DNA from: Escherichia coli
Lineage (GTDB): Bacteria > Pseudomonadota > Gammaproteobacteria > Enterobacterales > Enterobacteriaceae
Reading direction: 5' to 3' (one strand)
DNA length: 36,351 nt
Assembly: GCF_017348835.2 (NCBI RefSeq)
Contig: NZ_CP072313.1
In this document: piece by piece, positions 4,007 to 35,860 of the stretch
Position numbering within the stretch: position 1 is the first letter of the stretch
Layout of the letters: each line of letters begins with the position of its first letter
Program-made: the position numbers and the translations under genes
Notes under the pieces: model-generated
What the model was told of the DNA's origin: nothing
Seen by the model: the letters and a program-made list of their open reading frames with translations, nothing else
Databases searched by the model: none

Positions 4007-4522
4007 TTACGCTCTGTTTTCCACGCGTTGCCACCCTGTCGCCCTGCGCTGTCCAGTCGTACCGTATTTTGCGCGGATTTCTTCTATCGTGTGTTCTTCA
4101 CGATTCCAGTAACGTTTATGTTCTTCTGGACGATAAAACCATTGTTTTTTCTTTGCCGCCCATTTACACCCGATTTCTTTTAAAGTTTCTTTATGTGTAA
4201 TGGTATCTCCACTAATCCAGACCCAGTTACCTATAACTTCAAATACCAGACCTGATAAACCAGAAAGAACGTTTAATACTTTTTCCAGGTCGTCACCGTA
4301 ATTATATCGAGAATGTTCATCAGTGCTCTGAAACTGATTAATTTTATCGATGTTAGCCATGAGAAAATCAAAAGCTGCATTTACCGCTTTCATCAGTTCA
4401 GCCCCTAAAGGATTACGATCTGGATGATATTTTAACGCAGCTTTTCTGTATGCTGCTTTGATATCTTTTTCGGTTAATTCACCGGATAACCCAAAAACAT
4501 TTAACGCTTCCTGGATATTCAT
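4007..4522 (-). CDS. J-domain (DnaJ-like) protein, 171 aa, first gene downstream of module A3 promoter
   Basis: N-terminal J-domain with the invariant HPD motif (AAYRKAALKYHPDRNP); C-terminal part unrecognised. Confidence 0.7.
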   Translation of the reverse strand: MNIQEALNVFGLSGELTEKDIKAAYRKAALKYHPDRNPLGAELMKAVNAAFDFLMANIDKINQFQSTDEHSRYNYGDDLEKVLNVLSGLSGLVFEVIGNWVWISGDTITHKETLKEIGCKWAAKKKQWFYRPEEHKRYWNREEHTIEEIRAKYGTTGQRRATGWQRVENRA

Positions 4523-4950
4523 TTCAAATCTCCTGTCCGTTTGGACTTAAGAAGGAAAGGAGCCAATCTCCTTTCGATGAAACAATAATACATCTATTTG
4601 GATGTATTATCAAGGTTTCTGATCTGAAAAACGGTAAATTATTTGATGATTGTCACGCTGTTATCCGCGCCAGCGGATGTAAGGGGCGAACGAAAGTTCC
4701 AGGGTAGCACAGGAGCCACATCGCCCCGAAGCGCGGCAACGCCGCTACTGTTATCAACCGGAACCAGGGAACACCCTCCCGCCCTGCTAAGCCCGACTGA
4801 CTCACAGACAACGATGACGCTGATTTGCGCCGCAGAATGCCGCAGTTAGCGCTCGCGCCAGCGAGTTTACGCCGTCCAGGGTTTCCCTGGACGGGGCGCT
4901 GTACTGCGCGTGTGAGCGTCAGCGAGCTACGGGCGCAACACGCCAGAAGT
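4523..4950 (+). repeat. type-A module copy 3
   Basis: near-identical to 693-1123 and 2453-2866. Confidence 0.8.
4585..4613 (-). promoter_or_regulatory. sigma70-type promoter of module A3 (-35 TTGATA, 17-bp spacer, -10 TATTAT)
   Basis: same as the promoters at 755-783 and 2515-2543. Confidence 0.55.
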
Positions 4951-7300: not shown

Positions 7301-7554
7301 GATGTCGCGCCAGCGACATGTAAGGCGGTACGCTGTGGTTACATGTGGAACTGGAGTAAAACCGCCGAAGCCCGGCGTAAGCCGGTACTGATTGATAGAT
7401 TTCACCTTACCTATCCCCATCCTGCTAAGCCATACCCGCTTTCAGCCATGACGGAGTTTCTGTGCGCGGTCGGAGTGGTCCCGACAAGGGTTTACCCGAA
7501 GTCGGGGCGTATCTCCGCGTTAGCGGGCCGTTAGGGCCGCTTACGAGCGTGTAT
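7301..7554 (+). repeat. type-C structured element copy 1; inverted partner at 35981-36235
   Basis: about 95% identical to the reverse complement of 35981-36235; shares the 5' hairpin and CTGCTAAGCC core with types A and B. Confidence 0.8.
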
Positions 7555-10600: not shown

Positions 10601-10799
10601 GATGCCGCGCCAGCGGCATGTAAGGCGGCACTCTGTACTTAAATATGGCTTTGCGGGTTATCCGCCGAAGCCCCGCGCCAGCGGGTACTGTCTTCTATAT
10701 TCTCTGGAACTGCGCTCGCGCCCCCTGCTAAGCCCAAAACGCACGGAACCAACAGCTACACGGTTGTTTCTGGTCGAAGACCGACACTGCTGAAGCGAT
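10601..10799 (+). repeat. type-B structured element copy 1
   Basis: hairpin ATGCCGC-GCCA-GCGGCAT, then TAAGGCGG, CCGCCGAAGCC, CTGCTAAGCC, TTGTTTCTGGTCGAAGA; starts at the stop codon of the upstream gene. Confidence 0.8.
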
Positions 10800-11163
10800 A
10801 TTATTCGAAAGTTATCCTACTGCGCAATGCCCCTGTTTTATTTGAGGAAAATGGCATGAAGCATAAAAATTTTATTCCGAAATGGTATGATTCAACTCTT
10901 GAGTCAATTTCCCATCAAGATGTTAACACGATTCACAGTATCATTGATGAACACCACAAATTATGGAATATCCAGATGTGCAACAGGAACTATTTAACAG
11001 ACTGTTATCCGGTAAAAAACTGACGATTCATGATGAGCGAGAAATAATTGATATCTGCTCACGAAGGAGCGCAACATATCATTTAACCAGAAGTAATATC
11101 CCTAAGTAATCTGACGCTGCCAATAATCCGTTAAATTAAACTTTCATCGTTACCTGTCAAAAA

Positions 11164-11769
11164 ATGTCTATATCCGCAACTGTGCTTATGACACTGATCA
11201 GTCAGTGCGCACCTGGTGTTTCTCCTGAAACCATGCGTGCCATTATTATGACTGAATCCGGTGGGAATCCCTACGCTATAGCAAATGTCACCGACGGTGG
11301 CAGTAAATATTTTACCACTGAAGAGGAGGCTGTTAATCACGCAAAAAAACTGACTACAGATAAAAAAAATTTCAGTGCTGGCCTAGGGCAGATAAACAGC
11401 CGTAACTTCCAGACTTTAAATTTAACTCATGAATCCGTTTTTTCTCCCTGTGCGAATATTCGCGCTGCTGCGGCAGTGCTGAAAACGTGCTGGGATAAAT
11501 ACGAAACAAAAGGGGGGGACCAACAAAAGATACTACGTGACGCTATGAGTTGTTATTACTCCGGTAATAACAAACGGGGTTATGTGAAGGAAAGCAATGG
11601 CAAAAGTTATATCGATATAATTGAGGAAAAAGCCGGAATACATACTCATTATGATATTCCGGCAATAAAGTCATATTCAGAAACATCCAGCCATTTAATG
11701 GTATCCAGTGATAACCATGATAAATGGGATGTTTTTGGTGATTTCGGAATACAGGATTTTAAGGAGTAA
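11164..11769 (+). CDS. virB1: VirB1-like lytic transglycosylase
   Basis: lysozyme-like catalytic motif region (IMTESGGNPYA); first gene of the virB-type cluster. Confidence 0.85.
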   Translation: MSISATVLMTLISQCAPGVSPETMRAIIMTESGGNPYAIANVTDGGSKYFTTEEEAVNHAKKLTTDKKNFSAGLGQINSRNFQTLNLTHESVFSPCANIRAAAAVLKTCWDKYETKGGDQQKILRDAMSCYYSGNNKRGYVKESNGKSYIDIIEEKAGIHTHYDIPAIKSYSETSSHLMVSSDNHDKWDVFGDFGIQDFKE

Positions 11770-14974: not shown

Positions 14975-15175
14975 TAGCATGCCGCACAAGCGGCATGTAA
15001 GGCGGCACTCTGTACTTTAATATGGCTTTGCGGGTTATCCGCCGAAGCCCCGCGCCAGCGGGTACTGTCTTCTATATTCTCTGGAACTGCGCTCGCGCCC
15101 CCTGCTAAGCCAAAACCGCACGAAACCAACAGCCACGCGGCTGTTTCTGGTCGAAGACTGACAATCTTAAAGCGA
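14975..15175 (+). repeat. type-B structured element copy 2
   Basis: hairpin ATGCCGC-ACAA-GCGGCAT and downstream conserved blocks; sits between virB4 and virB5. Confidence 0.8.
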
Positions 15176-15948: not shown

Positions 15949-16296
15949 ATGTTCAAAAAACTACTTGGCGGTTTTATCCTTGCCTTTGCTTTTTTATTAT
16001 CCGGTTGCGGTGGTGATAATGGTGAATTAGCCGGGACATATATAGAAAAAAATCCTGACTCTGGTGATGCACCTCAAAAATGGATTATCAAATACGACAA
16101 AAAGGATAATTACTACACTCAAATATGGATAGAAAAAGATAAGAAAGGTAATGAGCATAACGGAACAACCAACTCATTCCTTATTAGAGATGGAGACTGG
16201 CTTGCAGGAAAAGAAAAACATTTTATTCGAGTGATTGATAAAAACACGCTTCAGTTAAGAGATGATGAGAACGCTTTGTATATCCGTACAAACTGA
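15949..16296 (+). CDS. lipoprotein, probable entry-exclusion protein (Eex-like)
   Basis: lipobox LLSGC; location between virB5 and virB6 as in IncN/IncX-type clusters. Confidence 0.6.
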   Translation: MFKKLLGGFILAFAFLLSGCGGDNGELAGTYIEKNPDSGDAPQKWIIKYDKKDNYYTQIWIEKDKKGNEHNGTTNSFLIRDGDWLAGKEKHFIRVIDKNTLQLRDDENALYIRTN

Positions 16297-29553: not shown

Positions 29554-29684
29554 TATCTAATGACACGTCTGAAGTATCCGATTAACCAGGGGTGGTTTGT
29601 CGACTTTAGATTGTGCCATATATGGAGTTGTTAGAAGAAAAGGGACTTCCTCCGGTCGGAGCCACCAACTCAAGGCCGGAAAAC

Positions 29685-29716
29685 AAAAAAGCCCGATTAC
29701 CAGTCGGGCTTTTTTG
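29685..29716. terminator. bidirectional rho-independent terminator between convergent topB and relaxase genes
   Basis: AAAAAA-AGCCCGA-TTACCAG-TCGGGCT-TTTTTT; works on both strands. Confidence 0.6.
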
Positions 29717-35654: not shown

Positions 35655-35860
35655 TGTTTTAAATGCCGCTTTAGCGGCATGGAAGGCGGCACTCTGTAGC
35701 TAAATGTGGTTTCGCTGGTTATCCGCCGAAGCCCCGCGCTAGCGGGTGCTGAATTCTATATTCTGAGGAACAGCGCTCGCGCCCCCTGCTAAGCCAAAAA
35801 CGCACGAAACCAACAGCCACTCGATTGTTTCTGGTCGAAGACTGACAATGTTAAAGCGAC
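35655..35860 (+). repeat. type-B structured element copy 4
   Basis: hairpin ATGCCGC-TTTA-GCGGCAT; starts at the stop of the upstream gene. Confidence 0.8.

Follow-up and report, generated by a model that had tools for sequence, protein, structure and literature searches.

The two short overlapping ORFs upstream of virB1 in the window (the whole 36,351-nt stretch of Escherichia coli DNA analyzed here) are very probably the two ends of one 163-codon gene broken by an internal 238-bp deletion, that is, an ordinary inherited pseudogene and a null allele. In the ORF listing of the window, ORF1 encodes MKHKNFIPKWYDSTLESISHQDVNTIHSIIDEHHKLWNIQMCNRNYLTDCYPVKN and ORF2 encodes MEYPDVQQELFNRLLSGKKLTIHDEREIIDICSRRSATYHLTRSNIPK; they overlap by 61 nt (10963-11023), with ORF2 in the -1 frame relative to ORF1 (Table 1). 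A preliminary description of this DNA had recorded two overlapping ORFs in different frames and positioned the first correctly, but placed the second at 10964-11110. Its placement of the pair upstream of virB1 agrees with our annotation. The gene that follows is the first recognizable gene of a type IV secretion system (T4SS), and 3′ of it lie virB2-, virB3- and virB4-like genes, continuing through virB11 and virD4; all of the virB and virD4 ORFs are intact in the window. No terminator was found between the gene remnant and virB1. The window looks like a complete, rotated plasmid. It is 99.7-100% identical to pDETEC35 (NZ_CP116127) across most of its length, and the plasmid is of a ~36-kb conjugative type found in E. 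coli and Shigella, with an IncFII-family RepA, a virB1-virB11/virD4 T4SS and a MOBP relaxase. The PGAP annotation of pDETEC35 leaves the gene remnant unannotated.

Positions 10700-11250 (551 bp) were used as a megablast query against PLSDB, which returned 12 E. coli plasmids of 32-45 kb. Four were colinear with the query, while four others matched in two pieces that spanned 786-789 bp as against the 551 bp of the query. Alignment of the window with NZ_LT985310 (locus L001) showed one clean gap of 238 columns in the window, with a single substitution in the flanks of the gap (codon 19, TCC in the window versus CCC). L001 has one annotated CDS here, 492 nt long and directly upstream of a virB1-like lytic transglycosylase gene, which encodes a protein of 163 aa (WP_159373159.1). 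Residues 1-37 of ORF1 are the native N-terminus of this protein and residues 3-48 of ORF2 are its native residues 118-163; by tblastn, the two parts are 97.7-98.8% identical to the intact protein of sister plasmids. The 163-aa CDS is intact, with identical flanks, in LT985310, CP062881, CP056572 and CP146686. The segment missing from the window corresponds to nt 114-351 of the intact gene and to residues 38-117. Since 238 is 3 × 79 + 1 (79 codons plus 1 nt), the 3′ remnant falls in the -1 frame, and this is why two overlapping ORFs are seen. The preliminary description was thus right to read the ORFs as one gene, since both match one intact protein, and the search for intact homologs that it proposed returned proteins matching both ORFs rather than one ORF only or neither. 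Its attribution of the split to a frameshift and its joined product of 85 aa have to be replaced by an internal deletion and a native product of 163 aa.

Table 1. Positions of the features discussed, numbered along the window except in the last row, where each position refers to the locus named.
Feature	Position	Strand	Remarks
Shine-Dalgarno-like GAGGA	10844-10848	+	7 nt 5′ of the ORF1 ATG; same in intact and deleted alleles
ORF1	10856-11023	+	55 aa: 37 native residues, then 18 that are out of frame (NIQMCNRNYLTDCYPVKN), ending at TGA
Retained 5′ part of the ancestral gene	10856-10968	+	nt 1-113 (codons 1-37 plus 2 nt); alignment to the 492-nt CDS of NZ_LT985310
ORF2	10963-11109	+	48 aa
ORF2 start	10963	+	fortuitous out-of-frame ATG within native Leu-Trp codons
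Deletion junction	10968-10969	+	GGAA/TATCCAGATG; alignment to the intact gene
Retained 3′ part of the ancestral gene	10969-11109	+	codons 118-163 plus stop (YPDVQQELFNRLLSGKKLT...); now in the -1 frame relative to ORF1
Surviving ATCCAGA copy	10970-10976	+	repeated 7-mer listing
A_AAA_AAC heptamer	11014-11020	+	in register with ORF1; adjoins the ORF1 stop (11021-11023)
virB1-like lytic transglycosylase gene	11164-11769	+	Pfam SLT, E=3.8e-12; PGAP annotation of the identical plasmid region
115-aa ORF	15949-16296		between virB5 and virB6; signal peptide, lipobox LLSGC; no Pfam match
GC-rich intergenic repeat, six copies, ~190-250 nt	10602-10798; 7301-7553; 14979-15175; 23723-23919; 35663-35859; 35981-36232		last copy inverted
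Second direct intergenic repeat family, four copies, ~290-430 nt	689-1113; 2449-2873; 4519-4944; 21378-21663		88-94% identical; gapped blastn
AgrB antisense RNA match	29631-29716		Rfam RF02891, 61.9 bits
Remote homologs of the intact protein	L005 3510-3983; L006 3273-3686 and 3679-4152; L019 3262-3795; L020 2201-2710		

Intact orthologs of 162-163 aa and 158 aa occupy the same position in the diverged sister plasmids CP075642, CP146509 and CP101957. The dN/dS values of the diverged orthologs relative to L001 were 0.23-0.44, which indicates a real, constrained protein. These values, the intact orthologs in sister plasmids and the existence of remote homologs with the same architecture together identify the long form as ancestral. 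The ancestral gene upstream of virB1 would encode a 163-aa inner-membrane protein composed of a cytoplasmic N-terminal helix (IIDEHHKLW), a two-helix transmembrane (TM) hairpin and a C-terminal domain, helical and likewise cytoplasmic, with the motif PDVxQELxNRLLSGKKLT that is invariant in the family. Both termini are predicted to be cytoplasmic by the positive-inside rule, given K35, K38, R41 and R44 before TM1 and an inter-helix loop of five residues. Among the near-identical intact alleles (L001, L010, L011 and L012), the 1-5 differences between any two are without exception nonsynonymous, although the numbers are small. Several nonsynonymous changes, including the deletion of one codon, fall in the N-terminal 21 residues of the intact alleles; the window's private change is P19S.

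The retained 5′ part codes for the cytoplasmic helix of the native N-terminus, with its IIDEHHKLW motif. Both hydrophobic segments of the protein, at about residues 41-61 and 66-92, are predicted to be transmembrane and fall within the deleted residues 38-117. In an AF2 model of the intact protein (mean pLDDT 77), the helices formed by residues 20-60, 67-92 and 105-115 overlap the deleted part. The last of these (DRETIQFLI / LSRQxLLxLM) is conserved family-wide and is removed by the deletion. With both hydrophobic segments and this conserved helix gone, the deletion allele should be null. The deletion leaves the Shine-Dalgarno-like sequence and the start codon of ORF1 untouched, so that its translation, into 37 native and 18 nonsense residues, probably continues. 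ORF2 is probably not translated. No Shine-Dalgarno-like sequence is present upstream of its ATG in the window sequence, and in a collection of 15 billion proteins it was never called as a gene by any gene caller. A pseudogene, one of the explanations offered in the preliminary description, is therefore the one we retain: the deletion breaks the frame and takes out both TM helices, and an intact ortholog is found in close relatives.

In the intact gene the 7-bp sequence ATCCAGA occurs as a direct repeat, one copy starting at nt 115 and the other at nt 353, a spacing of exactly 238 nt. Deletions between short direct repeats by slipped-strand mispairing are a classic class of lacI deletions. Since the spacing of the repeats equals the length of the deletion and one copy is kept, the 238 bp may have been lost by slipped-strand or microhomology-mediated misalignment between the ATCCAGA repeats. 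In both respects the deletion resembles those of the lacI type. It differs from them in that its junction is shifted 1 nt leftward from the perfect repeat, at an adjacent base that is T in the window and G in the intact alleles. Simple slippage within ATCCAGA does not give this exact junction, and an ancestral T or extension from a mismatch is required in addition. The deletion allele was found on two virB1 haplotypes that differ at five linked sites (window 11224-11383 region), which implies that sister plasmids later recombined or that the deletion arose more than once.

The deletion allele is real and in circulation, as shown by an identical junction in independent plasmids and by the number of contigs that carry its product. 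In the aligned records the junction was identical in the window, CP103482, CP146674 and CP044026, and a shortfall of 238 bp, judged by span, was also observed in CP116127, JBMIQB02, AP042482 and AP042550. The same junction or shortfall is thus present in at least seven other complete plasmids that were sequenced independently, from different laboratories, hosts and countries. Of the 5,426 complete E. coli genomes in RefSeq, 11 have the locus, five in the long form and six with the 238-bp shortfall. The isolation sources of carriers of the locus include human blood, an oral swab from an ICU, and pig and bovine faeces. The ORF1 peptide was called on 113 public contigs, 40 of them with S19 as in the window, 72 with P19 and one as an L10 variant; the P19 form occurs also in Shigella flexneri. 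Since the deletion allele is common, we infer that the ancestral function is dispensable for plasmid survival.

The same frequency can be read differently. If loss of the hairpin were tolerated or even favored, a soluble N-terminal fragment, C-terminal fragment or both might remain active, and the deletion allele would not be null. The source of such a fragment could be internal initiation at the ATG at 10963, occasional slippage, or a revertant with one additional T. The allele is indeed frequent, at 113 contigs compared with at least ~270 across the listed members of the cluster that has the intact allele. Moreover, contig JALZSN010000106.1 (GCA_026281385.1; L015, 1501-1755) carries the 238-bp deletion allele together with an extra T at window position 10950/10951, and over 3,255 bp it departs from the window in nothing else. 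This T restores the frame and yields an 84-aa fusion of the N- and C-terminal parts (P0022); it sits at the 5′ edge of a 70-nt stretch in which a +1 insertion can fuse the two frames, so that the single change found is a frame-restoring one at the 5′-most permissive position. A second deletion also bears on the question. Within the subfamily of 148- and 158-aa proteins, comparison of P0019 (85 aa, L016-L018) with P0011 (148 aa, L021) revealed an independent, in-frame deletion of 189 bp in the TM region, present on seven contigs (NCBI, ENA and Logan). On the right, this deletion and the one in the window end at the same nucleotide, before TATCCAGATG.

Against residual function stand the lack of a Shine-Dalgarno sequence for ORF2 and its absence from all gene calls, as well as the loss of the conserved helix 105-115 along with the hairpin. 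In addition, the variant with the extra T is a single contig that came from a protein-level search and is subject to ascertainment bias. Many other members of the family are truncated or frameshifted, as fits a gene that decays often. We consider an active fragment improbable. It is likewise improbable that loss of the TM hairpin is recurrent in the family of YafA/'YfiA'-like proteins through a deletion hotspot or selection, as opposed to random decay. If it were, conjugative plasmids would repeatedly make an accessory protein that is anchored in the membrane soluble or null, for instance as a way out of a cost or of a conflict with co-resident plasmids.

The preliminary description had also put forward a programmed frameshift, which here would be a -1 shift at A_AAA_AAC that fuses ORF1 to the frame of ORF2 and gives 84 aa. 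A search for slippery heptamers, as suggested at that time, did find this one, the sole in-register heptamer within the overlap of ORF1 and ORF2. It has the X_XXY_YYZ register with ORF1, a stop codon follows directly, and ORF2 lies in the -1 frame. In its run of A residues in this register and the -1 frame of the downstream ORF it resembles the sites of dnaX (A_AAA_AAG) and of IS-element transposases. In contrast to those sites, there is no stem-loop or pseudoknot downstream, and the two-frame layout is unconserved and made by the deletion. The 90 nt that follow the heptamer (11021-11110) had a minimum free energy of -11.3 kcal/mol, no better than the mean of shuffled sequences (-11.7 kcal/mol, z=0.16), so that no stimulatory RNA structure was detected there. 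The two frames occur only in the recent deletion allele, and every full-length homolog consists of one ORF. This run of six A residues (A6) codes, in the intact gene, for the Gly-Lys-Lys of the SGKKLT motif; because these residues are invariant in intact homologs, the run was not selected as a slip site. The predicted -1 product of 84 aa would contain 16 nonsense residues and would lack both PDVQQELFNRLLSG and the conserved PDVxQELxNRLLSG motif of the family. In E. coli, A_AAA_AAC is a weaker shifter than A_AAA_AAG. With the heptamer present but neither a structure nor conservation of two frames to go with it, we regard programmed frameshifting as very improbable and reject it. Some unprogrammed, low-level slippage at this heptamer is possible, and the junction peptide ...CYPVKKLTIHDE would be diagnostic of it.

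A sequencing or assembly error, in which one wrong base call, such as one in the A6 run within the ORF overlap, splits an intact small gene, is so improbable that we dismiss it: although the related record CP044026 does show extra homopolymer indels of the kind produced by read errors, unlike the shared 238-bp gap, the change of frame comes from that gap and not from a homopolymer, the A6 run is the same in intact and deleted alleles, and the length difference, far from being private to one record, recurs in independent ones.

We also examined the protein family to which the intact gene belongs. Searches of the intact protein against Pfam, NCBIfam, PHROGs and PADLOC yielded nothing beyond noise below the thresholds, a sequence profile search of the PDB gave nothing below E=0.17, and a fold search gave no informative match. 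By tblastn, relatives with ~30-37% identity and E-values down to 6e-9 were found on ~1,600 conjugative plasmids, and a search that started from an F-like member matched 2,546 plasmids. A profile search of 1.84 billion representative proteins returned 74 clusters only, all of them enterobacterial and many of them fragments; the YafA and F-like 'yfiA' proteins were among those recovered. On F-like plasmids the homolog is flanked by traR and traC, in some cases in tandem paralogous copies, and is occasionally labeled 'yfiA'. On IncI plasmids it is yafA, immediately 3′ of the FinO-domain gene yafB/fopA. Nothing specific was found in the literature on the ORFs between traR and traC; the only statement found concerns yafA, which is listed as a gene of unknown function (PMC7491321). 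The paper on PixR was set aside, as it deals with an unrelated HTH regulator.

The members share an architecture made up of an N-terminal I-x-x-I-I-D-E-H helix, a variable TM hairpin and a near-invariant RLLSGKxLTGRDE. In the window, residues 26-34 of ORF1 (IHSIIDEHH) fit the motif of the N-terminal helix. The TM hairpin, present in the intact ortholog, is absent through the deletion, and ORF2 retains PDVxQELxNRLLSGKxLT, out of frame (-1) with the N-terminus. The intact ortholog resembles YafA of IncI1 plasmids (pColIb-P9/R64-type) and the F-like 'yfiA' product in its length of ~150-165 aa, its I-x-x-I-(I/L)-D-E-H helix, its two hydrophobic helices and its near-invariant RLLSGKxLTGRDE, and all are plasmid-borne in Enterobacteriaceae. 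It differs from them in sequence, with an identity of only ~25-37%, and in location, since the gene here lies upstream of virB1, whereas theirs lie after traR (F-like) or after yafB/fopA near the replicon (IncI). The F-like and IncI members also have an extra C-terminal helix, unlike the intact ortholog. The copy in the window is a deletion remnant and not a functional member of the family. With low confidence, we suggest that the intact protein serves conjugative plasmids as an accessory factor anchored in the membrane, and that its C-terminal motif binds a conserved partner of the host or plasmid. In NZ_CP075642 (L003 1624-1920), and also in the L014 lineage, ~500 bp of extra DNA lie between the upstream repeat and the 162-aa gene. 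This DNA holds a 98-aa hydrophobic ORF whose stop codon overlaps the start of the 162-aa gene (ATGA); in NZ_CP075642 the ORF had no Pfam or NCBIfam match.

A role in entry exclusion was considered as well. In P-type T4SSs, Eex is a small lipoprotein encoded between virB5 and virB6 (pKM101/R388). Judged by its position, the 115-aa ORF of the window probably encodes an entry-exclusion lipoprotein. No lipobox is present in the 163-aa protein, whose gene lies upstream of virB1, and with a lipoprotein already in the canonical slot an Eex role for it is unlikely. In position the gene is similar to cds9/eex of the IncX4 plasmid pHNSHP23 (PMC8725589), an example from another P-type T4SS operon, both being small genes immediately upstream of virB1/pilX1; the present plasmid differs in already having the LLSGC lipoprotein in the canonical Eex position.

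Several other elements were observed on the plasmid. The copy of the GC-rich intergenic repeat nearest to the gene remnant ends 58 nt upstream of ORF1. The 5′ ~90 nt of this repeat fold into three hairpins that are conserved, base changes in one copy being compensated in another (CG to UA and CG to GC), and no Rfam match was obtained for the repeat, even at E≤1. The 90-nt hairpin module matches >5,000 F-like and IncI plasmids at 75-82% identity. It is located ~760 nt 3′ of repA in an IncFII replicon, and the copy at 7301 is placed likewise relative to the IncFII-family repA of the window. In position and shape the module fits the G4-type single-strand initiation 'G-site' of R1/R100; it would be unusual for such a site to have five further copies spread over the T4SS region. 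In the second repeat family, three copies lie among minus-strand accessory genes and one between virB11 and virD4. At the point of the AgrB match, pDETEC35 has a further ~2.2 kb that is absent from the window. In that plasmid PGAP annotates a gene for a DinQ-like type I toxin (dqlB) just upstream of a relaxase-like LPD7 gene. The AgrB match in the window holds the same pre-relaxase position as dqlB in pDETEC35.

On the reading we judge very probable, the 588 bp upstream of virB1 for which PGAP gives no annotation in these plasmids should be labeled as a pseudogene of a 163-aa membrane protein, and neither as two small genes nor as a recoding site. The family to which this protein belongs, for which there is no Pfam or NCBIfam model, is carried by >2,500 sequenced conjugative plasmids of enterobacteria, of the F-like, IncI and virB types. 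Its invariant RLLSGKxLT and the common natural knockouts offer a starting point for determining the role of this accessory gene in plasmid biology.
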